64,000 bases of DNA from a virus. Below the pieces are notes generated by a model. It saw only the letters and a program-made list of their open reading frames with translations, had not been told where the DNA came from and did no database searches. Shown here piece by piece: positions 18,651 to 45,286 of the stretch (the stretch's first letter is position 1; each line of letters opens with the position of its first letter). The stretch lies in IMG/VR virus record IMGVR_UViG_3300020183_000013, positions 32,001 through 96,000 of that record. One strand, given 5' to 3'. The translations under genes and the position numbers were made by a program.

Positions 18651-18972
18651 ACTATTTTCAAAACCATATACTTGCTGTCTAGAAATGCATAATGAACTAG
18701 GATGCTATTGTTCTGTGGAGCATCCATGCCCACCAGCAGGAGAAGATGGAGCTGTAGAATTTTTTGACAAGTATCATTTCATGATTGTTCATCAAATTGC
18801 TCATAAGGCAAACGAAGAAATTATTCAGGATTTGATTTCAATTCTTGGACCAAGAAAAGCAAGAGTTCAATTTGCCGGAAAAAGAATTTACTTCAATGAC
18901 CGCAGGTATATTGATTTACCTCATGATGGTATCTTTGTTTACGACGAAAACAAAATCGATATGACAGTCTAA
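18631..18972 (+). CDS. Hypothetical protein
   Basis: 113-aa ORF; stop codon lies inside palindrome copy 1. Confidence 0.5.
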   Translation: MKKLLRKLFSKPYTCCLEMHNELGCYCSVEHPCPPAGEDGAVEFFDKYHFMIVHQIAHKANEEIIQDLISILGPRKARVQFAGKRIYFNDRRYIDLPHDGIFVYDENKIDMTV

Positions 18973-19019
18973 AAACTGTCCTAGACCCCTCCAGAATCGC
19001 CTGTGAGGGGTCTTATAGT
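18960..19019 (+). promoter_or_regulatory. Early promoter element copy 1 (palindrome + hairpin + -10)
   Basis: TATGACAGTCTAAAAACTGTCCTA; AGACCCCTC...GAGGGGTCT; TATAGT at 19014. Confidence 0.7.
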
Positions 19020-19145
19020 GTCTGAGCAACCACAGACACCTATGAAGTATTCAAGTCTAGATCGTCTGATTTTTGTTGGTTCCTTTGTGTGGTTCATTCA
19101 CTGGACAACAAAAGTTTCTGCAGCTCTTTTGAACTTTGTATTCTG

Positions 19146-19583
19146 ATGCTTTCATTATACACTAGTGGATACAATTACAGCAAGAAACGCTGTGAAAAAA
19201 TTGTAAATTGGTTTATTCAAAAAGAACTTCCGCGTTACAAATTGGAAGTCTCTGTCAATCATCGCGGAATGTTGCGTGATGGAGTTTATGGATGGGTTGG
19301 TGTGACTGATTGTGACCATAGACCTCGGGCATTTGAGATCGAGATGCATAATCGATTGTCACTAGAACACTATACAATTGTATTACTTCACGAGTTGTGG
19401 CACATTAATCAGCACGTTAAGGGTGCTCTTCGAGATAAGTATGGTAAGAGACATTGGAGGGGTATTGATCATTCTCATCTGGACTATTCTGATCAACCGT
19501 GGGAACAACAATCTTTCATAATGGAAAAAGTGCTCTACGAGGAATATCTAAACTACTTGACAGATACCCAACAATCCCTCTAG
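19146..19583 (+). CDS. Putative zinc metallopeptidase-like protein (HExxH)
   Basis: LLHELWHINQH...PWE; ATG overlaps the stop of a 34-aa hydrophobic ORF at 19042..19146. Confidence 0.6.
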   Translation: MLSLYTSGYNYSKKRCEKIVNWFIQKELPRYKLEVSVNHRGMLRDGVYGWVGVTDCDHRPRAFEIEMHNRLSLEHYTIVLLHELWHINQHVKGALRDKYGKRHWRGIDHSHLDYSDQPWEQQSFIMEKVLYEEYLNYLTDTQQSL

Positions 19584-19637
19584 AATACCTTTGTTGGGTT
19601 TGAAGACAAGTTGGCTAAATATTTCTTTAAGAATCTT

Positions 19638-20120
19638 ATGAAAACTGTTGAACGTCATCGATACAATAGAAAGGATATTATAGAGACTCGTAGATTATCC
19701 TTTGAACCTTATCGATACTCTGAAAACAACCTAAGTCTGGTGATGGGGTTGATTAAACGCAATCTCACACCAGATCTTTTGACACCTAGGTATCGTCCAG
19801 AAAATAAAACAAATCCAATGTATGGATATTGCTATCCATCTACACAAGCATTGTTCTACTTGATGGATACTGATTTATTAGTTCCAATGGTTGGAACTGA
19901 TTATCGTAATGAGTATCATTGGTGGTTACAAGATGGTAAGAAAATTTATGATTTAACTGCTGAACAATACTATTCAGTCGGTAAAATTCCACCTTATCAT
20001 AATGGAAAGAAAGGTAAATGGTATGGATGGGGACAGAGACCACAACAAAGATCATTGGATTTGATTGTACGAGTTCTTGGAAGTAATGTGACGGATGAAC
20101 AAGTGGCACATACAGGTTGA
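19638..20120 (+). CDS. Hypothetical protein with possible Cys-His-Asp (transglutaminase/papain-like) triad
   Basis: GYCY...HWWL...IYDLTAEQY; TTGACA(19557)/TAGAAT(19581) promoter upstream. Confidence 0.5.
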   Translation: MKTVERHRYNRKDIIETRRLSFEPYRYSENNLSLVMGLIKRNLTPDLLTPRYRPENKTNPMYGYCYPSTQALFYLMDTDLLVPMVGTDYRNEYHWWLQDGKKIYDLTAEQYYSVGKIPPYHNGKKGKWYGWGQRPQQRSLDLIVRVLGSNVTDEQVAHTG

Positions 20121-20145
20121 CATTCCCACTCAGATGTCTTATATT
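20087..20145 (+). promoter_or_regulatory. Early promoter element copy 2
   Basis: TGTGACGGATGAACAAGTGGCACA; TTGACA(20117)-N17-TATATT(20140). Confidence 0.8.
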
Positions 20146-20230
20146 ACTTGAGTCGGTGAGGGAGGGAAACCAACCAATCTGACGGTTCCGCTGCCTTAAA
20201 GCGTGTTTACCTTACTTTCATTTTGTCATT

Positions 20231-21442
20231 ATGACTACCGTTTCTTTTGCCGACAATCAAGTCGGTTCTTATTCTCAGAAAGTTTCTGGTCTCAAACTTC
20301 TTGAAGATCCTAAATTTTCTAAACTTTTTAAAATGGTCGAAGATAATAAAGACCAAGTTGCAGTAATCTATCCCGAAGGAGAATGTGCTCTTTCTGTAGA
20401 AGATTTTGTTCAGAAACAAAAAGAACAGACTGAAGAAAAGAAAACTTTCTCTGTTGCAGTTCCTGCCAACCTTATTGAGTATGCACAGGGACAGATTCGT
20501 TTGATTCAACCTGATTTTTGTGAAGAAAACTTCAAAAACTATAAGTTTAAAGTTAATTTTCAAGAATCCGAAACTCCTGTTTTTATCTTTGACGAAAGAA
20601 CTGGTAAGTTTCAAGTAACCAAAAAGCAGCACACTACGATGCAGGCATTGGCTATTGCCGCTTCAACTGACCTTACTATGACTATTAGAGGTCGTGTGGT
20701 TGCTTTTAACTCGAACGTTCCTAAAAAAACTCGTGAACTGGAAGCTTCTAATATTTTCTATCGGGAAGTTAAGTCGATTAACACTACCAAAGATTGGGAA
20801 AAGTTGGAGCACCGTTGTCAACTTGGTGAGCAAAGTGCTCTGAATACTCGTGCTTTCTATCTGAGTATTCCTTATCTTACTTGGCAACCCGTTTCGCACG
20901 AATTTCCTCTTGTTTCTGGTGCAAAATGCTGCATCACGAAGGTTCGTGAGATCGAACGCCTTGTAGGATGGGCAAACAACGACGATCGTCCGAATGTTCT
21001 TACGAAGATTGTAAAAACTCTTTCCGAAGAAATCAATTGGGATAAAGAGTCTGATTCTAAAGAAATCTCTGCATACCTGATCAAGGCACTTTACAACTTT
21101 GATAAGGTCGTTGTACCTATCTATGAGGAAAAGACTGGTAAAACCTTTGATACTTGTGACTTTATCGTAGGTTACTTCAAGAACAAGGTTCGTAAACAGT
21201 CTATGGTGATTGGCAGCACTAAAGATACTAAGGGTGCTTGGCTTCAAGTTCTTCAAGTATGCAATCGTGTCAACAATTATATGACTTGTGAAGGAATTGT
21301 TGAGGAAGCTTTCTTTACTTCCAAAAACAAGGACTTTGTGAATGCAATCACTAATCTTTGCAATTCTAATCGTAAAAAAGGTAATCTGACTCCTGAAAAG
21401 GAAATCAAAGGTCAAATTGTCGCTCGCTGCGATTCTTTCTGA
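20231..21442 (+). CDS. Hypothetical 403-aa protein, possibly a degenerate ParB/Srx-like domain
   Basis: Long ORF behind a strong promoter; QIR...P.F......VTKKQHT loosely resembles the ParB-like DGQHR region. Confidence 0.55.
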   Translation: MTTVSFADNQVGSYSQKVSGLKLLEDPKFSKLFKMVEDNKDQVAVIYPEGECALSVEDFVQKQKEQTEEKKTFSVAVPANLIEYAQGQIRLIQPDFCEENFKNYKFKVNFQESETPVFIFDERTGKFQVTKKQHTTMQALAIAASTDLTMTIRGRVVAFNSNVPKKTRELEASNIFYREVKSINTTKDWEKLEHRCQLGEQSALNTRAFYLSIPYLTWQPVSHEFPLVSGAKCCITKVREIERLVGWANNDDRPNVLTKIVKTLSEEINWDKESDSKEISAYLIKALYNFDKVVVPIYEEKTGKTFDTCDFIVGYFKNKVRKQSMVIGSTKDTKGAWLQVLQVCNRVNNYMTCEGIVEEAFFTSKNKDFVNAITNLCNSNRKKGNLTPEKEIKGQIVARCDSF

Positions 21443-21498
21443 ACCAGTTTCTAAACTGTCACACTGGACTCCTGCGGGGGTCCTTTTTCCGTTATAAT
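21440..21498 (+). promoter_or_regulatory. Early promoter element copy 3 with terminator-like hairpin
   Basis: TGAACCAGTTTCTAAACTGTCACA; GGACTCC-TGCG-GGGGTCC-TTTTT; TATAAT at 21493. Confidence 0.8.
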
Positions 21499-21515: not shown

Positions 21516-22775
21516 ATGAGACCTGTGTTCCAACTGCGTCCTCACCAACAAAAAGCACTTGACGCTCTTGCTAAGTATCTGAAAGGTATCTGTGTGTTTC
21601 CCACTGGTGGTGGTAAGACCAATGTGGGTATCTTTGATGCAATGCGTGTGTTTCAATCTGAAACTCCTAAGACTGTTGTAGTTGTTGCTCCTCGCATTCT
21701 GCTTGCTGAGCAGCTGTCTTCTGAGTACCTTGAGTTTATCACTAACGTTGCTGTTCTGCACGTTCACAGTGGTGAGACTCATCACTTCAGCACCACGAAA
21801 CCCTCTGAGATTCAGCACTGGAATCAAATTGTGACTTGTGCATTCAATCCTGATGCTCCCAAACACAAACTGATCTTCACCACTTACAACTCTCTTGGTC
21901 AACTTGCCAAGGCAGGAATTGATGTAGATACGATTTACTTCGATGAGGCACACAACAGCGTTCAACGCCACTTCTTTCCTGCTGTTGAGTATTTCAGTCA
22001 GGAAGCAAAGCGTTGCTACTTCTTCACTGCAACTCCTAAGTATTCTGCCACCATCTCCAAGCCTGGTATGAATCTGACCGAAGTCTATGGTCAGATCATT
22101 GCCAAAGTTCCTGCTCCTGAACTTGTGAATGGTGGTTACATCATTCCTCCTAAGGTTGTTGCTAAGCAACTGCAGATGGTTCAGAAAGGTGACAACATCG
22201 CTCAGCGTGACCGTGACAATCTTCTGGAAGTTCTGGAGGAGAATCCTGTCAACAAGATTCTGATTTGTGCCAAGGCAACCAAGCACATCATCAATCTGCT
22301 GTCTGAGACTGACTTTGCTCACGTTCTTGCTCTGCAAGGTTATTCTGTGATGCACATTACTTCTAAGCACGGTGCATTCATCGACGGTAACAAAGTGAAC
22401 CGTGAGGTGTTCTTTGACACTCTGAATGCCTGGGGTCGCAATCCTGACAAGAAGTTTGTGGTTCTTCATCACAGCATTCTTGCTGAGGGTATCAACATCG
22501 CTGCACTGGAGGCAGTGGTCTTTATGCGCGATATGGACATTGTTGGTATCGGTCAGACTGTTGGCCGTACTCTTCGTCTGCATCCTGATGATGCTGCTGG
22601 TATTAGTAACGGTCAGATTGCTGCTGGTAACCTGCAGGAATACACCAAATCTTATGGTCTGGTGATCTGCCCTGTGTTCTCCAAGTCTACTGCCAACGCT
22701 GCAAAGAAGATCCAGAATGTTGTGGACATTATCTTTGAGCAGGGCGATGTTGCTGTTTCTACCATTCGGAGGTGA
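21516..22775 (+). CDS. Superfamily 2 (DEAH) helicase, ResIII-like
   Basis: LRPHQ Q-motif, PTGGGKT, FDEAH, FTATP, LAEGINI, QTVGRTLR. Confidence 0.9.
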   Translation: MRPVFQLRPHQQKALDALAKYLKGICVFPTGGGKTNVGIFDAMRVFQSETPKTVVVVAPRILLAEQLSSEYLEFITNVAVLHVHSGETHHFSTTKPSEIQHWNQIVTCAFNPDAPKHKLIFTTYNSLGQLAKAGIDVDTIYFDEAHNSVQRHFFPAVEYFSQEAKRCYFFTATPKYSATISKPGMNLTEVYGQIIAKVPAPELVNGGYIIPPKVVAKQLQMVQKGDNIAQRDRDNLLEVLEENPVNKILICAKATKHIINLLSETDFAHVLALQGYSVMHITSKHGAFIDGNKVNREVFFDTLNAWGRNPDKKFVVLHHSILAEGINIAALEAVVFMRDMDIVGIGQTVGRTLRLHPDDAAGISNGQIAAGNLQEYTKSYGLVICPVFSKSTANAAKKIQNVVDIIFEQGDVAVSTIRR

Positions 22776-23877: not shown

Positions 23878-24047
23878 AAGAAGGATTTGAAACCAAAGAT
23901 GGATACGCTGCTGTACCCTGGGGGAAACGGTTGGTTATTATCTACAACGGAGAACAATTGACTGATGTGAGCACCGTAAATCAAGCACAGAAGTTTATTA
24001 AAATACATAGATCCAGTCCTCAAACTGGTACAGTGTTTGTCAATTGA
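23874..24047 (+). CDS. Small hypothetical protein
   Basis: MKEGFETKDGYAAVPWGKRLVIIYNG...; below the ORF-track cutoff; 3' end contains palindrome copy 4. Confidence 0.55.
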   Translation: MKEGFETKDGYAAVPWGKRLVIIYNGEQLTDVSTVNQAQKFIKIHRSSPQTGTVFVN

Positions 24048-24066
24048 CCCCTTTATCACTTATAAT
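24009..24066 (+). promoter_or_regulatory. Early promoter element copy 4
   Basis: AGATCCAGTCCTCAAACTGGTACA; TTGTCA(24037); TATAAT(24061). Confidence 0.65.
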
Positions 24067-24086: not shown

Positions 24087-25271
24087 ATGATTAAAACCAA
24101 ACAAAAATTTGTAAATGTAATTCCTAAGAGTTCTAAGGCAAAGAATCGCTTTGTGAACATTATGAATTCATTTCACGCTTGCCTTGTAGAGCAAGAAATT
24201 GACGATATGATGTTTCTTGTTTCTCTGAATAGGCAGTATTGCTTTTGGGTTCAAAAAACTGGTAACGAACATTGGAGTATTGTAAAATGAAAAAACTGAT
24301 TCTTCTTACTGCACTTTTGTTCTCTTCTCCTGTATTTGCACAGGAAGTTAAAACATATCGTCCATTTCGTTATGAAACTCCTTGTATTCTAGAGCAAGGT
24401 ATTCAAACTTATCCTGATACTTGTGTAGTAGTTGAAACCCGTGAAAAAGGTGGAGCACTTCGAACTCGTAACATTTATTCCAATAAACATCGACTAACAA
24501 TCAAAGGACGATTTGATAAAGAGAAAGGTTATATGACTTGGGATAGTCATAATCAATTTGAATATAAGTGGGATTATAAAGTTGGTGGTGTTCAGGAACT
24601 TGGTGTCTGGACATATGTAATGCCTGGATTCCTAGTACAAAATGTAAGTTGGGACTAATTATTAAAATTTTATAAACTGTATTAAATAGTAATAGAATAA
24701 AGGAAAGTTATGGTTGTTTTACTTTCAACCGTGATTTCTTGTTCGCAAGCCTTTGCGATAATAAACAAAATACATAGGGTTATTGGACTGACTGAGGTTC
24801 AAAAAACCGAAATCGTACAAGAAATTCGCAATGTTATCCCTAGATGTCCAGTAATTGTTGTTCAGGAGAAAAAGAAATGAGTGTATATAGATCAGCAATC
24901 GATTTAATGCTGGAAGATCTCCAAAAACATCACAGCGACATTAGAGAATTGGCAAAACATCTTGGATGTGAAAAAGAACTTGATGAGATCAAACTTGATC
25001 TTATAGAATACCTATACACTAAGAGGCCTATTCAATGACCTCATATTATACATATCTGACTATATTTTGTATTCTTGCATATTTTATTGTTACTGATCAA
25101 AGTTTCGCCAAGTACATTATAATTCTTGGTAAACAGTTGCAGATCAAGTGGGCAATTTTTTATTGGTGGTTAAAAAATAATCCTGCAAATCCAATCGTAG
25201 CATATCGAATGAAAAGAAAATCTATGAGGATGGCAGAAGAACTGATGAAAGAACTAAAAGACAAAAAGTAA
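24087..25271 (+). CDS. Run of small hypothetical genes (24087..24290; 24287..24658 with signal peptide; 24710..24880; 24877..25038; 25035..25271)
   Basis: Tightly packed ORFs with overlapping start/stop codons; MKKLILLTALLFSSPVFA signal peptide. Confidence 0.6.
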
Positions 25272-25315
25272 ACTGTCCACTACCTCTTGACTTTGTAGTC
25301 AGGAGGTTTTATAGT
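25257..25315 (+). promoter_or_regulatory. Early promoter element copy 5
   Basis: AAAGACAAAAAGTAAACTGTCCAC; hairpin CCTCTTGACT-TTGT-AGTCAGGAGG containing TTGACT(25287); TATAGT(25310). Confidence 0.75.
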
Positions 25316-25337: not shown

Positions 25338-25793
25338 ATGACCTACAAAGCACGACTCAAAGTTTCTTTTGACACCGAATGGACCTCTAATGGGTATGGT
25401 GTTTATGATGATGAGACACTTCCGGAAGAGCATTATACCTTTGAAATTCCTACTGAAGACCTCAACAGTATTCAATTGTTCCGCTTCTTTGGAACGATTG
25501 CTCGCACGATGGGACATTGTGAGCAAGGTATTATGAAAGGTGCTTGTGCTCTTGCATTTAATGATATGCGTAGTTTTGAGGATATGAAGAAAGTTGCTGA
25601 TGAGTATGACTTGTTTCTTGCAGAAGAATATAGAAGCAAAGTCATTCCTCTGGAGAATAAGAATTATGAACTGGAAAAGCAAGTTCGTGACCTGAAAGCA
25701 AAACTTGCACGATGTGAGAATCCTGATGCTGAACAGTATCTTGATGAAGAGATTGAAGCAATGACTGCGGAGGAAGAAAATCTGAATGAGTGA
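25338..25793 (+). CDS. Hypothetical protein with coiled-coil C-terminus
   Basis: ORF directly downstream of promoter copy 5. Confidence 0.6.
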   Translation: MTYKARLKVSFDTEWTSNGYGVYDDETLPEEHYTFEIPTEDLNSIQLFRFFGTIARTMGHCEQGIMKGACALAFNDMRSFEDMKKVADEYDLFLAEEYRSKVIPLENKNYELEKQVRDLKAKLARCENPDAEQYLDEEIEAMTAEEENLNE

Positions 25794-26193
25794 CACTGAT
25801 CCTACAGCACCTCGGTATGAATTTATCTCATACATAAGGTGCTGTGAAAGCCTTGAGGTTAAACCATCACTTCAAAGATTTATGGCGTATCAAAGATATT
25901 TTAGGGAGATTATGGATGAAAAAATGGTTGGATAGTATCTTTAACTTTAGTTCTACAATTACTTGCTTTGATGATAACTGGGTGACTAAATCTGTTGCTG
26001 AAAAAATTGAAGAACTTGAAGAAAGAATACTTAAACTTGAGGATGAAAATATTTCATTAACTAATGAACTTTATCGTCTCGAAAACTCTTTAGATGCTCG
26101 TGTTGATATGCTTGTAATAGAGAATCATATCAATAAAACTATTGACTAATTGAAATTTCATTGGTAAAATTAAAAAAAAATTCATCAACATCA

Positions 26194-26688
26194 ATGGACT
26201 ACAAAAAATATTCGCTTGAAAATCTTGAGAATTGGCTAAACGATGCAATGTCTGCGAGTGGAGCAACACCGCAGGAGATTTATGATGTAATTGTTGGTGT
26301 GGTAAAAGAAAGTTATTATTATCATAAAGATCAAGCAAGTCGTGCAAATGAACTTCTTGGACTTTTGAATAGTGGTGTTGACAATAACAAGTATGATGAT
26401 TATTTAAATAAAATCTTGAGTTGTGATGCGAATAATTCTTCACCCGAATGCCAAGATGCTTGGAGTGACTTTTGGGAATCAAGTCACGAAGAATATTTGA
26501 GAGTTAACAATGACAAAGTTGTAAAGTGGCAACTTTCTACTCAAGTTGATGGATTGACTGGAGATTGTTATATTGAGTTGCCTGATGATTTACTTCAAAT
26601 TGCCGGACTTAAAGAGGGTGATACTGTAGAATGGATTGATCGCAATGATGGTAGTTTTGAAATGAGGAAAGTAAATGGCTCTAAGTAA
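26194..26688 (+). CDS. Protein with C-terminal AbrB/MazE-like (SpoVT) domain
   Basis: IELPDDLLQIAGLKEGDTVEWIDRNDGSFEMRKV. Confidence 0.6.
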   Translation: MDYKKYSLENLENWLNDAMSASGATPQEIYDVIVGVVKESYYYHKDQASRANELLGLLNSGVDNNKYDDYLNKILSCDANNSSPECQDAWSDFWESSHEEYLRVNNDKVVKWQLSTQVDGLTGDCYIELPDDLLQIAGLKEGDTVEWIDRNDGSFEMRKVNGSK

Positions 26689-27154: not shown

Positions 27155-27214
27155 TACTCCAGTTAAATAAGTGGCACAGGAGAAGTTGCACAGATTTCTC
27201 CTTTTTGCTATATT
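27155..27214 (+). promoter_or_regulatory. Early promoter element copy 6 with terminator-like hairpin
   Basis: TACTCCAGTTAAATAAGTGGCACA; GGAGAAGT...ATTTCTCC-TTTTT; TTGCAC(27186)-N17-TATATT(27209). Confidence 0.75.
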
Positions 27215-27235: not shown

Positions 27236-27673
27236 ATGAAAGCAGTCATCACCGCTATAATTGCTGCAGGAATTCTTGTTCCTACTTCAGCAGTTGCACA
27301 GCAAACAAATTACTATCAAGTTTGTAAGACATATCAAGAAAATTACGTTCCTGGTTATTATGACCAGTATGGAAATTATATTCCTGGTTATGTAAATCGT
27401 GTTAGTTATACTACCTCTTGTGGTTCTGGAGGTCCTGTAACATATCAACAACCAACTTATAATCGTAGGATTTGTAATCCTGCCGCTGGTGCAGCTATGG
27501 GTGCTGGTCTTGCAAGTGCTCTATCTGGTGGTTCTGGATGGCAAAATAGTGGCAGTTGGAATCGTAAATATAACCGAAACAGTTCATCTGGAAGTTGGTC
27601 TAACTCTTATAAAAATACTAGCGGTTGGACTTTATTTGGTGCTGGGCTCGGAGCACTTATGTATAGTTGCTGA
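27236..27673 (+). CDS. Exported/membrane protein with glycine-zipper
   Basis: Signal peptide; GAAMGAGLASAL and GAGLGAL helices. Confidence 0.65.
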   Translation: MKAVITAIIAAGILVPTSAVAQQTNYYQVCKTYQENYVPGYYDQYGNYIPGYVNRVSYTTSCGSGGPVTYQQPTYNRRICNPAAGAAMGAGLASALSGGSGWQNSGSWNRKYNRNSSSGSWSNSYKNTSGWTLFGAGLGALMYSC

Positions 27674-31959: not shown

Positions 31960-31982
31960 ACTTACATACGCAACAGATGCCG

Positions 31983-36117: not shown

Positions 36118-37538
36118 ATGATTGATCTTATTAAAACACTACTCAAATCAGCACTTGCTACCTCCCGTTGGGGTCCGCTAACAGAGGCAGATGAAGAACT
36201 TGTATGGGACTCTTCCTTTGCTAAAATATTCAAAGCATCATCTATCCACCGAACACCTTTAACACCACGCACTGCGATTACACTCGAATGACTCAAATTA
36301 TTGACTCTTCTGACCCACGATATTTTCGTCAAACATCTGACGAACCCTATCTTCGTCACGATTATAAATTGATAATGAGCAATGGTAATACCGTTGTCTT
36401 TGATAATTATGAAGATGTGCGGCGTAGGTGGTTAGAGAGTGGTGGTAACTTTTTAAGTCACGTTGAAGTTCTAGATCACAAAGAACCAAAGAATAAGAAG
36501 AAGAAAGGATTTTGATTATGATTGACTGGACAGAAAGATTTTCATCCTTGCCTGATGTAGAACAAGATAAACTAGCCCTGTTGCGTGTGATTGAATGCAC
36601 AAATGGTGTCATTCAACACTCCTATCGTAGTGGAGATGATGATACACTGACGGTTGATGAAGTCAGAGACGCTATGAAGTTTTCTATGGGTTGTATGAAA
36701 CGACAGGAGATACCTGTAGGAGATAAGGTTGTTACCTTTGCACCCGAAACAAAAGAACTGATGACTGAAATGAGACGATTGTATATCTCTGGTGCGAAAC
36801 AAAACAATCAAGAAGATTTTAATGAGTTTCTCAAAGGATCTAAAGCAAATCTACTTGCGATAGGTAAAGAACGCATCTTGAAAGCAAGACGACTTGCATT
36901 CAATCATATTGACGAATTACCACCTCATACATTAGACTGGGGACTTGAATACATCTTTAGTTTTGCTGGGTGGGTATGATGACTGACAAAATCACACTTG
37001 AACTCACACTTGAAGAACTCAAACTGATTGATAAGTATGTTGAGTTGAATGATGAGACCCAGGGTGTATTTGATAAAATCAAGTATGCTTATCCTAAATC
37101 AAAAACCCTGTACGATTTGATTTATGATTGGTGGGGTGATGTATTCACAGTTCATGGTGATTGGGATAGTGAAACATCTATTGAGGATTTGGTAGACCAG
37201 ATTGATATGTGGTTGCTCAAAGAGCATGATACCAACAGTTATAAATGGAATGAGTGTATCCGAATGATTAGGGAGAAACTACGATGACTGAAAACTATCC
37301 CGATTATATCTTTGAAGAAGCACACCGAAGAGAACTTGCAAATAAGCCTTTTGAGGAACTCACCACAAATGAAAAAATTCAACTTGCCCTTGAAAAGGTT
37401 GATTGGATTGTGATTGGCGGACAAGACGGACAAGAGTTTTATAGTTCTATTCAGTTTATTCGTAGGGTGTTGAGGAGCCTTGTGACACCTTACAAACTGA
37501 CACAAGGACACACCAGAACCGACCTGGATGCCCTATAA
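36118..37538 (+). CDS. Run of small hypothetical genes (36118..36291, 36288..36515, 36518..36979, 36976..37287, 37284..37538)
   Basis: Contiguous coupled ORFs. Confidence 0.55.
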
Positions 37539-37539
37539 T
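37481..37539 (+). promoter_or_regulatory. Early promoter element copy 11
   Basis: TGTGACACCTTACAAACTGACACA; TATAAT(37534) contains the upstream stop. Confidence 0.8.
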
Positions 37540-37562: not shown

Positions 37563-39865
37563 ATGTCTAACTTCTACACTCTCATTCCTGGAACTGATGT
37601 GCTCCGTAGTAAGATTGATGTCTTCCAGTGGACTAATCCTGAAAATGAAAATCAATCTGAACGAGTAGAACTAACAGTAGATAATGCTGGTATTTTCATT
37701 ACTTCTTGTTCTGGTGGTGCTCGTGAAGATATGAGTATTTCACAGAAGGATTTGGCGATTGCTCTTGCTCGTGGAATTCTTGAAGCATATGGAGTTGGTT
37801 GAATGACTGACATTTCTAAACTCTCCTACAAAGAACTCCAACAACTTGAAAAACAAATTGATGAACGCAAAGAGGTATTGCGTAAGTCAAAGGATTGTGT
37901 TGAGGGATATAAAGTTACATTCTGTGTGAAGTTCAATCCTGCTGAACACCAATTTGATGAATTGAATAGTCCAGAAGAGTTTGGTGATTATTTGGGAAAT
38001 GATGTTGCAAATCTGATTGTCAAAGATTTGGGTCTTCTGCAATCTAATGTAAGTGCTTTTATCATTGAAGAAATGACTGATGAAGATAAGGTAGAATGGA
38101 AGAACTTCTGGGAGGATGATGAATGACTTACGGACTAAACCCAAATACAATTGCATTCTCTTACACTCGTGAAGAGTTGTTTGAGTGTATCACAAAGATT
38201 GTAGCACACCCACACACTGCAATCACAAAGCACGACAAATCCCGTGCTCTTGCGATTATGGTAGTGATGGATGATTACTTCTCAAACTATGCTGAAAGTG
38301 ATAATGAGGGTTGTCATTATGTTTATGAACAGGAGGCAACGGACCTTATTGATTTTGTAAGAAAGTTTGAACTTGGTATTGATGATTATGGTGATGTTGA
38401 TGTTGATGAGGTGTTGAAGTGAGCAGATTTACTGAAAATCCTGATGAGATTGTGCTTCAAGACATTCAAATGTTTCATCTGGAAAGTATGAATGAACGCA
38501 CACTTTGGATTGGTGTTTATGGTGATGATGGTAAAATCTATCACTTGAATATTTCTGCAGATGGTGATAAACTGAGGTATTATTGGAGTAATGAAACCCC
38601 GTGAGATTCGAAGAACCAACAAAACTTGAACTCTTCCTTGATGGTTTTCATAACTTTTTGAACTGTCTGGATTGTTATAATGATGGTGATGAATGGGGCT
38701 ACCAAGAATTCTGGGAAGGATTAAATCTCGGGTGGTATATGGAATATATTTTCCCTTATGAGGATCCGTACAATATTACTATCTCACCAGAAAGAAAGTT
38801 GAGGTTGGACCAGAAACCACCAGTCATTTATGTTTCAGAAGAGGCATATGATAAACTAATAGAAGCAATCAACAAACCACCAGAGTATAATGAAAAGATT
38901 GCCAGAGTGTTAAGTCGTAAAGCACCTTGGGATGAAGAAAAATGACTATTGAGGTAACACACAATGAAGACAACACATTTACCATCTCCTGGGATGAGAA
39001 TTCTCCTACGGAAAGTATTTTCAACACCTGGACAGAAGAAGACTTTATCAAGGTCATTATGGACTATCTTCAGAAATTAGAAACTGAAAGACGTGATGTT
39101 GAAAAATCCAGATATGTATAGTAGAGTAGTACCAGGAACAGCAAAAAGAAAAACTAAAATGAACTGGTTTGATTACTGGATTATGCATTGTTGGATGACT
39201 GGATGGCAGAGCATTAAACATTCATTCCAAAACTGGGCTGATTTGATGACTGGTAACTGGAAAGATTATGCTCTGATGTGGTATGATGATCCATATGAAG
39301 AGTGTCGTGATTGCTTCTGGTCTTATCTTGGTGATGATGACACTCTACCAAAAGAGTTTTTAGAACATCTACAACAACTGGTTGAAGATATTGAAACTGG
39401 TAAAGAGAAAGTCATTCCGATGGATGAACTTCTTATCAAACGAATGAAAGACCTTACAGAAGATGTGGAGGTAGACTAATGGGATTATATGATGACATTC
39501 ATTCTTCTTATAACCTAGGAGAGCACTTCACTAATGTACCAATGCAAACCAAAGGACTTGCTCGTGCTATGTCAAGATATTGGATTGCACCTGATGGATG
39601 TTTGTATGAATTGACTTATAAAGAAACACATACTTATGAAGATATTAAAGAGGATGATGAACGATATGATTCAAAACATTTATTCTTAAATTATGAATGG
39701 ATTCCAACTGGAAAACACGGTAAGGTAGAACCCTGTTACATCACCGATTATGTTGAGATCTATCCTGCACAATGGAATGGTTCTTATGATGATTGGCCAC
39801 GATGTAGAATACACTTTAAGTATGGTAAAGTAATGGACTTTGAAGTATATGTCGGAGAAGGATAA
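37563..39865 (+). CDS. Run of small, mostly acidic hypothetical genes (37563..37802, 37803..38126, 38123..38422, 38419..38604, 38601..38945, ~39159..39479, 39479..39865)
   Basis: Contiguous coupled ORFs. Confidence 0.55.
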
Positions 39866-40084
39866 GATCTATTATAATGTATGGTGTTGTGCTTATCAGA
39901 GAAGGTATCTGTATAAGAAAACACCAAGAGAAAGTAGAGAGCATGAGACTGTTCTTATGTGTTTAGGTATCGCAAGGTTCACAGTGTTTGATACTGAAAA
40001 AACTAAGCATTTAAGTTAATATAACGATAATATGATATTAAAATAATAAAAAAACGGCTTTTTAAATCATAGCCTATTATTTTG

Positions 40085-40107
40085 TTATTGATAATCATTC
40101 TCAATAA
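40085..40107. promoter_or_regulatory. Fur-box-like palindrome
   Basis: TTATTGATAATCATTCTCAATAA; core TGATAATCATTCTCA has one mismatch to the 7-1-7 Fur consensus TGATAATnATTATCA. Confidence 0.55.
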
Positions 40108-40118
40108 AAGGTGTGATG

Positions 40119-40210
40119 AATACTCTTTTAATACCCTATAATACCCTTAGATATCTTATAAACCCTTAGATATCTTATGTTAATACCTTATAATACCCTT
40201 ATAAACCCTT
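40119..40210 (+). repeat. Tandem ~10-11 bp phased repeats (AATACCCTT / AAACCCTT / GATATCTT)
   Basis: About 9 related units in non-coding AT-rich DNA. Confidence 0.75.
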
Positions 40211-40237
40211 CGGATCCTTGTGATCTTACACGTCGGC

Positions 40238-40266
40238 AGCTTAGCACAAGGTCTCTGAGTTGTCAA
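40238..40266 (-). promoter_or_regulatory. Leftward sigma70-type promoter
   Basis: Minus strand TTGACA(40266-40261)-N17-TAAGCT(40243-40238) with TG extension. Confidence 0.55.
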
Positions 40267-40276
40267 GGGACGCGCA

Positions 40277-40633
40277 CGAGATTCGCAGAGACGCACTAGA
40301 TTCGCACACACAAGACACTTCGAGATTCGCATAGGTCTCATAGTTACTTCGAGATTCGCACAATACCTTATAATCAAACTAGATTCACATCATATCATTA
40401 TATCGTTATATCATACTAGATTCACATAAGTTCTCGTAATCATTTCGAGATTCGCATCAATCACATAAACACTTCGAGATATCATCATATCATCATATCA
40501 TCATATACTAGATTCATTTCGAGATTCACACAATACATCTAGATTCTTACTAGATTCGCATATATACTGTCAAGGGTCTCGTGAACACTTCGAGATTCGC
40601 ACACAATAACTTGACACACCTTCTAGATTCACG
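40277..40633 (+). repeat. Iteron-like array: 14 copies of C(G/T)AGATTC(G/A)CA
   Basis: Copies start at 40277, 40296, 40321, 40350, 40379, 40416, 40446, 40475, 40508, 40520, 40539, 40550, 40591 and 40623. Confidence 0.85.
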
Positions 40634-40639
40634 TATACT
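40611..40639 (+). promoter_or_regulatory. Near-consensus sigma70 promoter
   Basis: TTGACA-N17-TATACT; the last array repeat sits in its spacer. Confidence 0.8.
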
Positions 40640-40671
40640 ATACACATAGTTTTTCAGGAGTTCGAGTTCTT

Positions 40672-40845
40672 ATGTCTAGTTCTTATCTGTCTGCAACAAA
40701 GACTAAGTATCGCATCACGTTAGAGCTAGAGGTGTTTCCAGATATGAATCCTCATCAGATTCAGTGGGAACGTGTACTCGAACTTGAGCCTGCGGAGAAG
40801 GTTAACTCTTATGTCGAAGACCTGAGTACACCTGACCGCTGGTAG
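40672..40845 (+). CDS. 57-aa hypothetical protein next to the repeat array
   Basis: AGGAG RBS; MSSSYLSATKTKYRITLELEVFPDMNPHQIQWERVLEL... Confidence 0.65.
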   Translation: MSSSYLSATKTKYRITLELEVFPDMNPHQIQWERVLELEPAEKVNSYVEDLSTPDRW

Positions 40846-40924: not shown

Positions 40925-40983
40925 TGTGCCACTTGTAGAACTGTCCATAATATTCACCAAACCCCTGTGGAACCTGGTATATT
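40925..40983 (+). promoter_or_regulatory. Early promoter element copy 12
   Basis: TGTGCCACTTGTAGAACTGTCCAT; TGgTATATT(40978). Confidence 0.8.
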
Positions 40984-41013: not shown

Positions 41014-41262
41014 ATGCAAGACTTTTCCAAGAAATTCTACCAAACCCTGATGCTCAATGTTGCAACAATTGCCGCGATTGTGGTGGGAATTGTGACATTT
41101 ATGATTCGCTCCTTCAATGAGAACAATGGGGCAGAAAAGACACGTAAGGTGTTACAAACTGTTCTGCGCTTCGTTGATACCATTGTGGGCAAGCTTCAGG
41201 TTCTGGTGAATACTGATGTGCCAGAAGTAAAAGTGGCACAGAAAACTACCAAAGGGAAGTGA
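41014..41262 (+). CDS. Small membrane protein
   Basis: One TM helix; 3' end carries palindrome copy 13. Confidence 0.6.
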   Translation: MQDFSKKFYQTLMLNVATIAAIVVGIVTFMIRSFNENNGAEKTRKVLQTVLRFVDTIVGKLQVLVNTDVPEVKVAQKTTKGK

Positions 41263-41275
41263 ATCCTGGTATATT
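41217..41275 (+). promoter_or_regulatory. Early promoter element copy 13
   Basis: TGTGCCAGAAGTAAAAGTGGCACA; TGgTATATT(41270). Confidence 0.8.
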
Positions 41276-41300: not shown

Positions 41301-41632
41301 ATGTGCGGTCCTGCTTTTGAGTATACTCGGGAAGATTTCCTGAATGATGCTTCTGATGAAGAATGGGTTGAATGGGAACAGAAAGCAGCAGAACTTGAGT
41401 TGACTCTGGATTACTACCTCGCCGAATTTGTCTGATGGAATTTGTTAACTACGTTCGTTCATTCTATGGCCCTGGTGGTATCTACTCGATGAATGTAACT
41501 GATGCAATGATCATCGACGCCACCATACAGTACTTGACAACTCCTGGCACACGTTGGTGCGATGGTGATAGTTTCGACCGCGAACATGTTCGTGACATTA
41601 TGATCGAACGGTTCGGTCTTGTGCCAACCTGA
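41301..41632 (+). CDS. Two small genes (acidic 41301..41435; 41435..41632)
   Basis: Coupled TGATG junction; the second has the FYGPGGIY...DSFDREHVRD pattern. Confidence 0.6.
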
Positions 41633-41680
41633 GAACTGGCACACGGGGTCGCCACAGACCCCACCCCCTGACCCTATACT
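41620..41680 (+). promoter_or_regulatory. Early promoter element copy 14
   Basis: TGTGCCAACCTGAGAACTGGCACA; GGGGTC-GCCACA-GACCCC; TATACT(41675). Confidence 0.8.
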
Positions 41681-41705: not shown

Positions 41706-41966
41706 ATGCTCAAGAAAGTATCACCCGAAAAGGCAACTCCATCTCCTGTTGTAGTTAACAAAGGAAAGCATGGATACAACTGCTGGGTGTATTCTAGCAG
41801 GATTCAGAAGAATGGCAACACATACTTTAAGTATACAATTGCCCACACATTCAAGCAAAAGTTTGTATCTAGAGAGGATGCCCTGATGTATGGTTGGGCG
41901 AAAGTTAATGGGCACAAAGTTACAACTTTCGATGTGCCCATGCGCCACAAACCTGTGACAGTCTGA
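41706..41966 (+). CDS. Basic hypothetical protein
   Basis: Single-gene cassette between copies 14 and 15. Confidence 0.6.
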   Translation: MLKKVSPEKATPSPVVVNKGKHGYNCWVYSSRIQKNGNTYFKYTIAHTFKQKFVSREDALMYGWAKVNGHKVTTFDVPMRHKPVTV

Positions 41967-42013
41967 CTAGTGGCACAAGACCCCTTGCGGTTCTCCTGAT
42001 TCTGGTTTACATT
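41954..42013 (+). promoter_or_regulatory. Early promoter element copy 15
   Basis: TGTGACAGTCTGACTAGTGGCACA; TTGCGG-N17-TACATT(42008). Confidence 0.8.
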
Positions 42014-42040
42014 ACATTCGTTCAAACAAAGGAACACCAA

Positions 42041-42286
42041 ATGCGTCCTGTTTCTGTTCACCCTGAGAAAAGCATTCGGTTCACTGAACACGCTAAGTTC
42101 TGGTGTGAAATGTTGAACAATTATCGCAAATGTTACCCTAAGCATTCGTTTGCTAAAATGGCAGAACATTTCGATCTGAGTGAAACAAATGCCCGCCGAT
42201 ATTACTATGGAATGCATCAAGCAAATCTGGGGTATTTTGGCAATGGTTACAATCAAATCCGCAGGGGTGCCTGTGTGACACTCTGA
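42041..42286 (+). CDS. Helix-turn-helix protein
   Basis: SFAKMAEHFDLSETNARRYY fits an HTH pattern. Confidence 0.55.
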   Translation: MRPVSVHPEKSIRFTEHAKFWCEMLNNYRKCYPKHSFAKMAEHFDLSETNARRYYYGMHQANLGYFGNGYNQIRRGACVTL

Positions 42287-42333
42287 GAACTGCCACAAGG
42301 GGGGTTGCAATGCTCCCCAATCCGTTCTACATT
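42274..42333 (+). promoter_or_regulatory. Early promoter element copy 16
   Basis: TGTGACACTCTGAGAACTGCCACA; TTGCAA-N17-TACATT(42328). Confidence 0.8.
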
Positions 42334-42358
42334 ACATTCGTTCCTGAGACACCAACCG

Positions 42359-42796
42359 ATGACCGTGACTCTGACTGCTTCCTATCGTGAAATGCTGCAC
42401 GAAGATGCAGTTGCTAAGATCGATGAGCTTCTGGAGGAGAACTATGCTCTCGATGATATGCTTGAGTTCATCGATGAGCGTAATGAGACCAACTTCGTTC
42501 TCTTTTATGAAGAGTATGTGCGTGTTGGTGAAGCAATCGGTTATGAAGCAGTAGATGCTCTCATTGATGAAATGGGATGCGTTTCTGACATTGAAGATTG
42601 CGACGAACGTTATCAAGGTTGCTATCAAGATGAGGCAGAGTTTGCAGAATCTTTCTACAATGAAATGGGTTGCAACATCCCTGAAGGAATTGTAGTGGAT
42701 TGGGAAGCAACGTGGGAAACTTCGCTGCATTATGATTACACTTCCTGCAGTGATGGTAGCACCTATCGTTCTTGCCACATCTTCCGCGATTGCTGA
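42359..42796 (+). CDS. ArdA-like acidic anti-restriction (DNA mimic) protein
   Basis: Very acidic; YQGCYQDEAEFAESF...IP...VDWEATW..L..DY resembles the ArdA C-terminal domain. Confidence 0.6.
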   Translation: MTVTLTASYREMLHEDAVAKIDELLEENYALDDMLEFIDERNETNFVLFYEEYVRVGEAIGYEAVDALIDEMGCVSDIEDCDERYQGCYQDEAEFAESFYNEMGCNIPEGIVVDWEATWETSLHYDYTSCSDGSTYRSCHIFRDC

Positions 42797-42914
42797 TAAG
42801 AATGGGGGGATTAATTCCCTCCCTTTTTTTATACTTTTATTTTAAATATTTTTTAGCAGGGGCGGTGGCGATGGTTTTCGTCTTAGAGGCTACCCCGCCT
42901 CTCATCCGATTGTC
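42797..42914 (-). ncRNA. Candidate structured sRNA transcribed leftward from element copy 17
   Basis: Minus-strand TATAAT(42925-42920); no ORF; hairpin AGAGGC/GCCUCU with possible pseudoknot. Confidence 0.5.
42803..42830 (+). terminator. Rho-independent terminator (possibly bidirectional)
   Basis: GGGGGGA-TTAAT-TCCCTCCC followed by a T tract. Confidence 0.7.
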
Positions 42915-42919
42915 CCCAT

Positions 42920-43014
42920 ATTATAAGGCAGCCACGGGGGCATTCGTGGGCAGCCAGTGCCACTTCCCGAACTGACCACGACCCATTGCGTTGGGTGCTG
43001 ATCCGTGCCATACT
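42920..43014. promoter_or_regulatory. Bidirectional early promoter element copy 17
   Basis: AGTGCCACTTCCCGAACTGACCAC(42956-42979), with CATACT 29 nt to the right and minus-strand TATAAT 30 nt to the left. Confidence 0.7.
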
Positions 43015-43020
43015 AACCGT

Positions 43021-43932
43021 ATGCAAAACAAACACCTCGAACACCCCGAAGATACCATCCTCACGGGTGACCTTTCTGTTCTTGATTGGTTTACTGCTGC
43101 AGGATTCCTGAGTGTAAAGATTGATGGTGCCCCTGCAATTGTATGGGGTAAGAATCCTGCGAACGGTAAGTTCTTCGTTGGCACCAAAGCTGTGTTCAAC
43201 AAAGTAAAGATTCGTATTGCACACAATTATGAAGAAATTGATGCGTTCTATCAAGGTGAGGTTGCGTCTATTCTTCGTGCTTGTTTTGATTATCTGCCTC
43301 GCATCGATGGTATCATTCAAGGGGATTTTATTGGTTTTGGCGGTAGTGATGAGTATTGCCCCAACACGATTACTTACCAGTTTGGTGAAGTAGTAACTGA
43401 AGAGATCATTGTTGCACCTCACACTTACTACGTTGCAGAAAAGGATCTGCGGGATGCTGTAGCGTATCCGATGAACTTTATCATCACTGATACTCCCTGT
43501 GTGAAGTTTGTGAAACCTGATGTATACATTGCACACGGTCAAGAATCGTTCGCTGATGTAAAAGAAGTCTGTGGATTTGCTCGTCAAATGTCTACTCTTG
43601 CAACGTTTGTAACTGATAAGGAAGCACAGAAGATCAAGCAACAACTGAATGCCTGCATTCGTGCTGGTGAAGAAGTCAACCCTGAGGACTTTGATTGTGA
43701 TGCTAACCTGTTGCGTTTGTGGGCACTGGTGAAGTCGATTAAGGATGATTGTCTGTTCCTTTGTCGTAACAATGGGCCTGCAGCTTATCTGGGTTCTCCT
43801 CATAACGGCTATGAAAGAATTGACTCTGAGGGTTACGTAATGACCAATGAGTTTGGTATGTTCAAACTGGTGAATCGTGAGGTATTCTCTCACGCCAACT
43901 TCACCAACGGTCGATTTCAGTGTGCCACCTAA
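43021..43932 (+). CDS. Conserved T4-like protein (DUF6267-like) with RNA/DNA-ligase nucleotidyltransferase motifs
   Basis: HLEHPED N-terminus; SVKIDGAPA (KxDG), IQGDF, SEGYV, FKLVNR. Confidence 0.65.
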   Translation: MQNKHLEHPEDTILTGDLSVLDWFTAAGFLSVKIDGAPAIVWGKNPANGKFFVGTKAVFNKVKIRIAHNYEEIDAFYQGEVASILRACFDYLPRIDGIIQGDFIGFGGSDEYCPNTITYQFGEVVTEEIIVAPHTYYVAEKDLRDAVAYPMNFIITDTPCVKFVKPDVYIAHGQESFADVKEVCGFARQMSTLATFVTDKEAQKIKQQLNACIRAGEEVNPEDFDCDANLLRLWALVKSIKDDCLFLCRNNGPAAYLGSPHNGYERIDSEGYVMTNEFGMFKLVNREVFSHANFTNGRFQCAT

Positions 43933-43980
43933 ACAAGTGCCACATCCTCCCTTGTGGAGGTCCTGGATTCGTGCCATACT
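43921..43980 (+). promoter_or_regulatory. Early promoter element copy 18
   Basis: TGTGCCACCTAAACAAGTGCCACA; CCTCC..GGAGG; TGcCATACT(43975). Confidence 0.8.
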
Positions 43981-44003
43981 ACGTTTGTTGCTGAGGGATT
44001 TCA

Positions 44004-44516
44004 ATGGATTTCGACACTGACTTCTGGGGTGAGATTCAAGATGCCCCTGGTGAAATCTTCGACATTCCAGAGTTCGATGACTCTGATGATTTCAACCTCA
44101 ATGAGTATTTGAACGCTTCCTACGATTACTGAAACAATGCAATTTCAAGTTACTGCAATCGAGTTTGATTTTGATGATGAGGATCTACATCCTGAGGAGA
44201 AATCTGACATCATCGAGGATACAGTAGGACACATCTGGGAAGCAGATGATGAAGATGATCTCATTGAAGAGATCACTTCGTGGACAGGTTGGTGCATCAA
44301 ATCCATTGATTATCGTCACGTTCTGATCTGATTATGTACCGCACTGAACTTCAAGACGCCTACATCAATCAGGTTCTTGATGATATGGACATCAAAGATG
44401 CAATGGCATTGTTGTTTGATTTTATGGATGCTGACCTTGATAAGTATAGTGAAAAGCAACTGATTGAAGAGATTAGTCACTTTTATCCCGAACTGGTGGA
44501 GGATGTGACAGACTGA
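44004..44516 (+). CDS. Three very acidic small genes (44004..44132, 44137..44331, 44334..44516)
   Basis: D/E-rich peptides downstream of copy 18. Confidence 0.6.
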
Positions 44517-44564
44517 CTAGTGGCACAAGGGGTCGCCACAGACCCCACCCTGACCCCTTATACT
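44504..44564 (+). promoter_or_regulatory. Early promoter element copy 19
   Basis: TGTGACAGACTGACTAGTGGCACA; GGGGTCGCCACAGACCCC; TATACT(44559). Confidence 0.8.
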
Positions 44565-44587
44565 GATCTCAGTTCAGACAACCCCCG

Positions 44588-44827
44588 ATGATCGTCCAAC
44601 AGATCGGCAGCAACATGACCGAAGTGCAACTTGCCGATGGCACTTGTGTACTGGTCTCCTACACGACCCCCGTTGCTGCCCTTGTGCCTGGGAAGGGATG
44701 GATCCGCACTGCCCACAAGTGGAGCGCCACCACCACCAAGCACATTAACAAGTGGCTTGCCAAGAACTGCGGTGGCGCTGTTCAGACTGTGACACAATGG
44801 GAAGTGGATCAACTGCTCGCATTCTGA
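44588..44827 (+). CDS. Conserved phage small protein
   Basis: LVSYTTPVAA...WSATTTKHINKWL pattern. Confidence 0.7.
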   Translation: MIVQQIGSNMTEVQLADGTCVLVSYTTPVAALVPGKGWIRTAHKWSATTTKHINKWLAKNCGGAVQTVTQWEVDQLLAF

Positions 44828-44847
44828 CCTTTCCGACCCTGTAGAAT
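44788..44847 (+). promoter_or_regulatory. Early promoter element copy 20 (degenerate right half)
   Basis: TGTGACACAATGGGAAGTGGATCA; TAGAAT(44842). Confidence 0.6.
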
Positions 44848-44851
44848 CCTT

Positions 44852-45240
44852 ATGATCACCACCACCCGATTCCGCTTGATCCGCACCCCTCGCTTCCTTG
44901 CTCCTCTGTTCTACGCTGCCCTCGCTACCCGCCCCCGTGTCGGTGATGAGGCAGCGGCAGTGAGCATCGGTCCTGCCTACCTTGGCATCTACCGCACCCA
45001 TAACGGGTTTGAGGTTGTCTACGGCATCCTGAACGAACAGGAAGCACTCTGACCAATGGGAACTGCAGCGCCCTAAAGACTGCTTCAACCATCCTACCCC
45101 TTTCTGAAATGACCCGCGACCTGGCTCTGTCCCTGCTCCGTCAAGGCACCAACGGCGACAGCATCCTTAAGATTCTGGAGACCATCGCCAACCCTAGCGA
45201 CGATAGCGCACAACCGACCGCCGAGCCCATCCAGTTCTGA
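44852..45240 (+). CDS. Two small genes (44852..45052; 45109..45240)
   Basis: GC-rich ORFs; MTRDLALSLLRQGTNGDSILKILE. Confidence 0.55.
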
Positions 45241-45286
45241 CTCTGACCACTGGCCCCCTCGGATGATCCGCAGGGGGCCTTATACT
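45227..45286 (+). promoter_or_regulatory. Early promoter element copy 21 (degenerate)
   Basis: CCATCCAGTTCTGACTCTGACCAC; GGCCCCCT...AGGGGGCC hairpin; TATACT(45281). Confidence 0.6.

Follow-up and report, generated by a model that had tools for sequence, protein, structure and literature searches.

In a T4-like cyanomyovirus, many small genes of a putative early region follow a repeated 24-bp dyad, which stands at a fixed distance from a sigma-70-type -10 box and whose two arms match those of the cyanobacterial promoter element CGRE1. The window analyzed, the whole stretch of 64 kb, comprises bases 32001-96000 of the 137,575-bp IMG/VR record IMGVR_UViG_3300020183_000013; positions refer to the window unless the record is named. 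The dyads are probably part of early-type promoters on which a host protein may dock, with the GntR-family regulator PlmA (PMM1637) as lead candidate. Direct observation covers the sites with their geometry, their conservation in other phages and the arm identity.

Dyad series and layout of the putative promoters

A sequence-only reading of the window had listed 21 palindrome starts at a constant distance from -10 boxes. The series is real and highly non-random. Strong copies of the pattern TGTGMCAS-N8-STGKCACA make up 18 of the 21 sites and score 18.2-30.5 bits with a weight matrix, which was trained on all 21 listed sites, so that these training scores are circular. Three marginal dyads are at noise level: 25257 (10.2), 36012 (9.8) and 45227 (7.5). 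The consensus of the sequence-only reading, allowing up to three mismatches, yielded 32 strand-matches, equal to 16 places, in the window; the shuffle expectation was 0.90 (standard deviation 1.34, largest value 6, 100 shuffles). All 16 places belong to the 21 starts, while those at 24009, 25257, 36012, 42956 and 45227 fell below this cut-off. Nine sites in the window have at most one mismatch.

Confinement to the early-type region, also claimed from the letters, was upheld by a matrix scan of the whole 137.6-kb record. Scores of at least 8 were reached at 66 positions versus a mean of 41.8 in 30 shuffles, and every position scoring at least 18 lies within 18960-44788. No strong copy was found outside 18960-45250 in the record, and the structural blocks have none. 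All 21 sites are on the gene strand, and an ORF comes after each of them. At 40.9-45.3 kb they follow each other at 284-965 bp, as calculated from the coordinates. The best scores outside the small-gene region occur at record 130732 (16.9), window 56214 (15.7) and record 127639 (13.7). The match at 56214 sits within an ORF (open reading frame) of 4099 amino acids. The two record positions, outside the window, are weaker copies with the same downstream layout including the -10 box, and precede a peptidase-like and a cobS-like gene.

The spacer between dyad and -10 box measures 28-31 nt at all 23 sites, 21 in the window and two outside, in full agreement with the earlier claim. On the gene strand, at least five of six letters of TATAAT occur at this distance in 14 of 18 strong sites, compared with 3.5% of random positions in the region and with 2 of 18 strong sites on the other strand. 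TAnnnT was found at 16 of 18 strong sites (7.9% of random positions). Variants of the -10 box in the window include TATAAT, TATACT, TACATT and CATACT. The start codon follows the -10 box after 17-28 nt at 17 of 23 sites. A -35-like TTGnnn, where present, begins about 6-8 nt past the dyad end. Two of the three weakest dyads (25257 and 36012) are accompanied by a consensus TTGACT, which would make sense if elsewhere the dyad stands in for a good -35 box. GC-rich hairpins of -6 kcal/mol or below are present in 16 of 23 spacers (9.6% of random 30-mers), with a T run at 3 of 23 sites only. The sequence-only reading mentioned neither these hairpins nor the overlap of upstream ORF ends with the palindrome. 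A transcription start placed about 7 nt past the -10 box would put the dyad at about -42 to -65.

The dyad consists of two 10-bp arms that flank 4 bp without conservation and, read from there to the outside, have the sequence AACTGKCACA. Upstream ORFs end within the dyad or shortly after it, their stop codon often occupying dyad positions 1-3, 3-5 or 11-13. Such stops are built into the dyad sequence, with the TGA of the TGTGA arm at 3-5, TGA at 1-3 and TGA or TAA at 11-13. In 41 distinct oriented IMG/VR sites, the upstream stop begins at position 10 in 13 cases and at position 3 in 10 cases (23 of 40 stops). About 60 nt thus hold a gene end, a putative docking site, a stem-loop and the core promoter.

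The dyad is in all likelihood a promoter-linked protein site. In 199 distinct dyads from viral contigs, positions 5 and 20 are complementary in 0.60 of the pairs (0.48 expected) and positions 8 and 17 in 0.35 (0.44 expected). No co-variation was detected at variable positions in these 199 dyads or in 18 dyads of the window. Conservation is lowest in the central 6-8 bp, with 0.03-0.26 bits in columns 11-14. Conservation of letters rather than of pairing, together with the missing co-variation, points to a two-fold symmetric protein site on duplex DNA. A single dimeric protein just upstream of the -35 position, as proposed in the sequence-only reading, is the best, if unproven, interpretation: symmetry, an end about 6-8 nt before TTG, orientation toward the gene and confinement to the small-gene region agree with it, and binding itself is predicted.

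Class I activator sites and UP elements, known from bacterial and T4 early promoters, occupy -40 to -65, just upstream of the -35 box, at a fixed distance from the core promoter. The dyad shares both properties. UP elements are A+T-rich and contacted by the alpha subunit of the polymerase, whereas the phage dyad contains G+C and has specific arms. Two known site types were considered and rejected. The CTGGCAC of the proximal arm resembles the -24 box of sigma-54 promoters, but the symmetry of the site speaks against this, and cyanobacteria are not known to have sigma-54. Sites of the CRP type (TGTGA-N6-TCACA) or NtcA type (GTA-N8-TAC) have another geometry, the TGTG and CACA blocks being 16 bp apart in all strong sites.

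Arms shared with CGRE1 and occurrence of the dyad

CGRE1 is an element of yfr2-family small RNA promoters that responds to the GntR-family protein PMM1637 (PlmA) of Prochlorococcus MED4 (Lambrecht 2018, PMC6191309). In that report, the protein was recovered by pull-down, bound in electrophoretic mobility shift assays and activated the yfr2 and yfr4 promoters, all of which was lost with R50A (PMC6191309). The MED4 promoter oligonucleotides of its table S1 contain TAACTGGCACATGTGACAATTA for yfr2 and TAACTGTCATATGTGACAATTA for yfr4, and the shuffled control replaces exactly this stretch (PMC6191309). The phage arm consensus AACTGGCACA matches the arm sequence in TAACTGGCACA and TGTGACAATTA of the yfr2 oligonucleotide. 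Where the search left the letter free, 58 of 62 host arms carry A (position 1) and all 62 carry G or T (position 6). Phage arms show the same preference at both positions.

The high-light form of CGRE1 was found at 26 loci in 185,579 species genomes, namely 22 in Prochlorococcus, one in a Synechococcaceae cyanobacterium and three in unrelated bacteria. Cyano-1 (Yfr2-type) RNA begins 73 nt past the CGRE1 pattern in the three loci examined. Of 301 Cyanobiaceae genomes, 46 carry the low-light/Synechococcus form, ACTGNCACNGTGNCAGT, versus four for the reversed control. In each of five host genomes, exactly one GntR protein was detected above cut-off, and its recognition helix, LHRNT(I/V)SKVYRQLE, is nearly identical among them.

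Both elements thus use the same 10-bp arm, AACTG(G/T)CACA, upstream of the -35 position of a sigma-70-type promoter, with one arm in the same register: in high-light Prochlorococcus the TGTGACAATT arm begins 53 nt before the -10 box, which equals the distance of the distal phage arm (24 + 29). Its partner arm precedes it in the host and follows it in the phage. CGRE1 arms are abutted and face inward over 21-22 bp, whereas the phage arms are swapped and 4 bp apart, giving 24 bp. The CTG/CAG blocks are 11-13 bp apart in both arm orders, about one helical turn. In high-light Prochlorococcus, CGRE1 occupies about -54 to -75, and some Synechococcus copies reach into the -35 region, in contrast to about -42 to -65 for the phage dyad. 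The CGRE1 reader PMM1637 acts as an activator in the reporter assay described (PMC6191309).

Cyanophage Syn9 carries the same composite at 47204, 48558, 51000 and 52996 (window matrix, scores 18.5-26.6). These dyads precede gp68, gp73, gp78 and gp90 of a small-gene region that lies between the tail-fibre/2OG-oxygenase block and gp25/gp6, and a -10-like box follows 28-29 nt downstream. Copy number at up to one mismatch differs widely among phages. Against the nine sites of the window, clustered dyads were counted in three IMG/VR genomes, with 12 sites in G307 (205 kb, 96% complete), four in G306 (182 kb, 100% complete) and three in G308 (251 kb, 100% complete). Syn9 has two such sites, which agree exactly with the strict pattern, and phage S-SM2 none; the reversed-pattern control gave one match in S-SM2 and none in the other four. 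An IMG/VR scan for dyad, 28-31 nt and TAnnnT returned at least 200 loci, the spacing being imposed by the search pattern. Among the matches listed were 228 dyads, 80 of them with an exact TATAAT.

The gene for a DUF6267 protein, which follows one of the window dyads, has 412 relatives. In 80 loci around such homologues, 376 dyads were counted in 510 kb (0.74 per kb). The dyad is kept in 57 of 78 homologues, in 46 exactly 69 nt before the ATG, and the sequence flanking the kept dyads varies. Homologues without dyad (L349, L352-L357, L359-L361, L363, L412) share an upstream AAAGTG(T/G)(C/A)CCTATAGTATG running into the start codon, which may represent a different promoter or leader type for this gene.

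A novel regulatory element at the early genes of Syn9 and P-TIM40, abundant among T4-like cyanophages, was reportedly described by Doron in 2016. Because hundreds of viral contigs, near-complete IMG/VR genomes and Syn9 itself share the composite, the dyad is very probably this element. Its motif sequence was not found stated in the literature citing that study. Host group, phage group, the position before small genes and the order of dyad, spacer of about 29 nt and -10-like box are shared; the -10 region differs, with ATTCTATAAGAGTCA after three of four Syn9 sites versus TATAAT, TATACT, TACATT or CATACT here. Novelty, which had been left to be checked, is therefore not supported, the same composite being already present in Syn9: the window very probably adds a rich new example of a known early-promoter element, not a new kind. 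No paper linking cyanophage early promoters to CGRE1 or PlmA was found in the literature searched. Added here are the swapped arm order, the one arm in host register, and a host clade with the swapped order before an rRNA leader and defence-type genes.

In host genomes, the strict dyad was found at 13 sites in 10 of 301 Cyanobiaceae genomes versus two for the reversed control. Scans at up to two mismatches gave matches at the level of the reversed-pattern control, i.e. noise. Two of the ten genomes have a dyad that points toward the 16S rRNA gene from a distance of about 400 nt. A homologous 16S leader was detected in 9 of 301 genomes (G102, G172, G013, G153, G189, G206, G073, G236, G129). All nine have the dyad (scores 20-27.5), with the sequence T(G/A)TGACAGGTGAAYTAGTGGCACA, 32 nt before a TGnTACCTT box. 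None of 40 other 16S upstream regions carries it (best score 10.6), so the leader dyad is a clade feature and not a general one.

The same clade has further dyads 29-32 nt before -10-like boxes beside low-GC genes. Island dyads at 1501-1524 and 2773-2796 of L239, 1501-1524 of L415 and 530-553 of L417 are located near an HTH_17 and PIN_3 pair, an N6_Mtase protein and an AAA_16/BrxC-like ATPase. These defence-type genes recall the island genes responding to Syn9 infection, which include PIN-PhoH and DUF3387 operons (PMC5490813). In two clade members, the PlmA orthologue retains this helix, has a longer linker and shares only 44-54% identity overall with those of three other genomes. At Cyano-1 (yfr2-type) promoters of this clade or other Synechococcus, the phage-type order occurs in none and the CGRE1 order in two of seven loci. 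CGRE1-type sites are present in none of the nine clade genomes and in 46 of 292 others, a sample too small to mean anything. With such small numbers, the apparent use of the swapped order in this clade is a lead, not a result.

Candidate readers of the dyad

We infer promoter identity, early timing, protein binding and the identity of the reader from sequence. The composite would function as follows. The 24-bp dyad is followed by a 28-31-nt spacer, often with a weak TTGnnn -35 box and mostly with a GC-rich stem-loop, then by a sigma-70-type -10 box, a short leader and a small gene. The spacer stem-loop may end or protect the upstream transcript. The dyad would stand at the place of an UP element or a class I activator. 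A DNA-binding protein of two-fold symmetry that the cell contains before the phage DNA enters would dock on it and recruit the host RNA polymerase, and many small transcription units would fire at once. The leading candidate for docking is the host activator PlmA, because the arms are those of CGRE1. That the host supplies the reader is somewhat favoured; that PlmA itself is the reader is a more tentative proposal, short of probable.

Several observations weigh against this reading. The phage record contains 10 arm pairs of the phage type (A'-N4-A) and none of the CGRE1 type (A-A'). With the arm order swapped, a rigid dimer should not read both forms. Most host genomes lack the strict dyad, and the strict pattern has no site in five high-light Prochlorococcus genomes. 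S-SM2, the closest phage by gp6, has one strong site in the 49.9-kb matching region and none at up to one mismatch in its whole record; the element is thus not obligatory for this phage group. The record is rated 64% complete; its missing portion, or one of the many small ORFs without family, might encode a reader of phage origin. As to the arm order, both forms might conceivably be accommodated by a dimer whose winged-helix heads are loosely tethered.

The strongest alternative is a phage protein as reader, either a virion-delivered activator or an early or middle product that shuts early transcription off, with the likeness to CGRE1 due to convergence or coincidence. The rarity of the phage-type arm order in host genomes and the many small ORFs of the region without family agree with this, as do sub-threshold matches to AbrB/MazE-type and antitoxin-type DNA-binding folds at 26161-26688, 38601-38945 and 39093-39479. 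No DNA-binding family, however, was detected above cut-off by Pfam among 83 early-region proteins, and a protein cannot be needed for transcribing the first genes if these same genes encode it. As in class I activators, a site whose end is about 7 nt ahead of the -35 box is usual for activation, not repression. An arm consensus shared at 10 of 10 positions with a proven host site, including the G/T choice, is also hard to obtain by chance. A phage-encoded reader is therefore considered rather unlikely. GntR domains were absent from the record and from five further cyanophage genomes.

Modules, genome context and meaning

The dyad had also been proposed as a cassette-shuffling site and, from its 9-6-9 geometry, as a recombinase core. 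As the main function, with the promoter role secondary, recombination by homology patches or at such a core for single-gene cassette exchange is improbable. Single genes are indeed bracketed by sites at 40.9-45.3 kb. Whole modules occur as near-copies, with 73% identity over 70 nt between those at 41954 and 42274 and a second pair at 41620 and 44504. Genes of the dense stretch are found singly at other places in other cyanophages, and upstream stop codons fall at fixed dyad positions. In 1273 pairs from 51 DUF6267-gene loci, which are not independent, homology breaks off at most 5 nt from the distal dyad edge in 185 pairs, 5-15 nt upstream of the dyad in two, further upstream in 191 and later, at the -10 box or in the coding region, in 803. 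A conserved motif alone would stop BLAST homology at the dyad edge without any exchange there. The frequent end at this edge fits promoter-plus-gene modules with the dyad as left border, so that a cassette boundary is partly supported, and agrees with general recombination among repeated promoter modules as known from PeSLs (described below); it does not imply exchange at the dyad. The recombinase core found no support. The dyad centre is not conserved, unlike a crossover core, and no integrase or recombinase family was detected among 84 + 65 proteins with PHROGs or 83 proteins with Pfam. The strict -10 distance and the single orientation are promoter properties.

Promoter/stem-loop (PeSL) elements of T4-type coliphages mediate modular shuffling according to Arbiol (2010, PMC2839356). 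Like them, the composites repeat a sigma-70-like early promoter with stem-loop in a hyperplastic region of small, non-essential genes and bracket single genes (PMC2839356, PMC4122927): -10 boxes, hairpins in 16 of 23 spacers and 21 copies in 26 kb of small genes were found. The PeSLs, as described there, have no upstream protein-site dyad (PMC2839356, PMC4122927). The stem-loop is located here inside the promoter, between dyad and -10 box, and has a T run in 3 of 23 sites, unlike the PeSLs. Comeau (2014, PMC4122927) mentions neither 'cyanophage' nor 'S-PM2'. A palindrome working as RNA or single-stranded DNA stem-loop, as 3' end structure of the upstream message or processing site, is very improbable. 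Upstream ORFs do have their 3' end there, 8-10 bp could pair, and a second, GC-rich hairpin follows in 16 of 23 sites. Complementarity at the variable positions, however, is not above expectation, positions 5/20 are mismatched in about 40% of the 199 dyads, and the window has no Rfam match; the hairpin reading was rejected for its lack of co-variation.

The promoter composites follow each other on the + strand as described below, with dyad coordinates and score in brackets. At 18960-19019 (18960-18983; 22.4) a 30-nt hairpin spacer and TATAGT precede the ORF 19089-19583, and at 20087-20145 (20087-20110; 24.5) TTGACA and TATATT precede 20231-21442. The composite 21440-21498 (21440-21463; 22.3) has a terminator-like hairpin with T run and TATAAT before a helicase-like ORF (21516-22775). 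That at 24009-24066 (24009-24032; 20.6), with a spacer of 28 nt and TATAAT, precedes 24087-24290. The marginal site 25257-25315 (10.2) retains the proximal arm only and combines TTGACT with TATAGT before 25338-25793. A terminator-like hairpin with T run recurs at 27155-27214 (27155-27178; 19.7), with TATATT before 27236-27673, followed by a hairpin spacer and TATAAT at 27671-27730 (27671-27694; 28.8) before 27756-28169. The exact consensus is present at 31901-31959 (31901-31924; 30.5), with TATAAT before 31977-32414. At 33229-33288 (33229-33252; 23.7) a hairpin spacer and TATAAT precede 33313-33588. The marginal dyad of 36012-36070 (9.8) is joined to TTGACT and TATAAT, a promoter with 11 of 12 letters of the sigma-70 consensus. 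TATAAT also follows the dyad at 37481-37539 (37481-37504; 27.3), before 37563-37802.

The dense series is opened by 40925-40983 (40925-40948; 21.8) with TATATT. At 41217-41275 (41217-41240; 26.6), TATATT is followed by ACATTCGTTC and the ORF 41301-41435. The module 41620-41680 (41620-41643; 29.3) contains the hairpin GGGGTC/GACCCC and TATACT; its near-copy at 44504-44564 (44504-44527; 26.5) has a hairpin and TATACT before 44588-44827. TACATT is used by the exact dyad of 41954-42013 (41954-41977; 27.8) and by its relative at 42274-42333 (42274-42297; 29.1), which has a hairpin and TTGCAA and precedes an ArdA-like anti-restriction ORF (to 42796). CATACT is found at 42956-43014 (42956-42979; 22.2), with TTGCGT before the DUF6267 ORF (ATG 43021-43932), and at 43921-43980 (43921-43944; 26.1), with TTGTGG. 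The weakest strong copy, 44788-44847 (44788-44811; 18.2), has TAGAAT. The marginal dyad of 45227-45286 (7.5), with a strong hairpin spacer and TATACT, precedes 45310-45828.

PHROG and Pfam scans assign the window to a T4-like cyanomyovirus. The nearest gp6 proteins belong to phages of Synechococcus and Prochlorococcus, the closest being that of Synechococcus phage S-SM2 (60% amino acid identity). About 80 small ORFs of cyanophage PHROG families are located in the dyad region, which also codes for a helicase, a 2OG oxygenase, a peptide deformylase, a methyltransferase and an ArdA-like protein. Baseplate gp25 and gp6 are encoded at 48617-50935. Homologues of tail (including tail sheath), capsid, portal, terminase, late sigma, gp45/44/62 and regA are located outside the dyad region. 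The tRNA scan of the window gave no match.

Three further features of the window were recorded. A gene-free stretch at 40020-40670 starts with an A+T-rich tract (40020-40110), then carries AGATTCRCA ten times on the same strand at 40279-40601 (expectation for the entire window, 1.7) and ends in a consensus promoter, TTGACA-17-TATACT (40611-40639), before the ORF 40672-40845. It could be the site array of a second regulator or an origin-like region. At 42000-46000 the G+C content is 0.45-0.54 versus about 0.37 in most of the window. Single genes each own a dyad promoter in this stretch, and its composition suggests cassettes circulating among phages of higher-GC hosts. After gp6, a single ORF of 4099 amino acids covers 50940-63239, and one of 2530 amino acids is next at record 96825-104417. 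Both are putative giant structural or fibre-like genes; Syn9 likewise has gp101 (18.2 kb) after its gp6.

T4-like cyanophages lack motA and asiA, the T4 genes that reprogram the host polymerase (PMC5780444). The window, with 18 strong copies in exact geometry, is one of the richer sets of the early-promoter element, and its arms point to a named, purified host protein. With gene end, putative docking site, terminator and promoter in about 60 nt, the composite would be a small and portable module for gene expression in engineered cyanobacteria. Should PlmA not be the reader, the window would add one more example of what is known from Syn9. If it is PlmA, early phage transcription would be coupled to the nitrogen and light status of the host, which bears on the outcome of infection in the nutrient-poor ocean. 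PlmA is tied to the PII-PipX pair of nitrogen and energy signalling. In a broader and unlikely scenario, T4-like cyanophages would start infection by borrowing PlmA via an everted CGRE1, gating early transcription by the nutrient and light state of the host, with the rRNA promoter and defence-island genes of some hosts (PIN pair, N6 methylase, BrxC-like ATPase) on the same switch. Growth and anti-phage genes would then be wired to the very switch that the phage needs.

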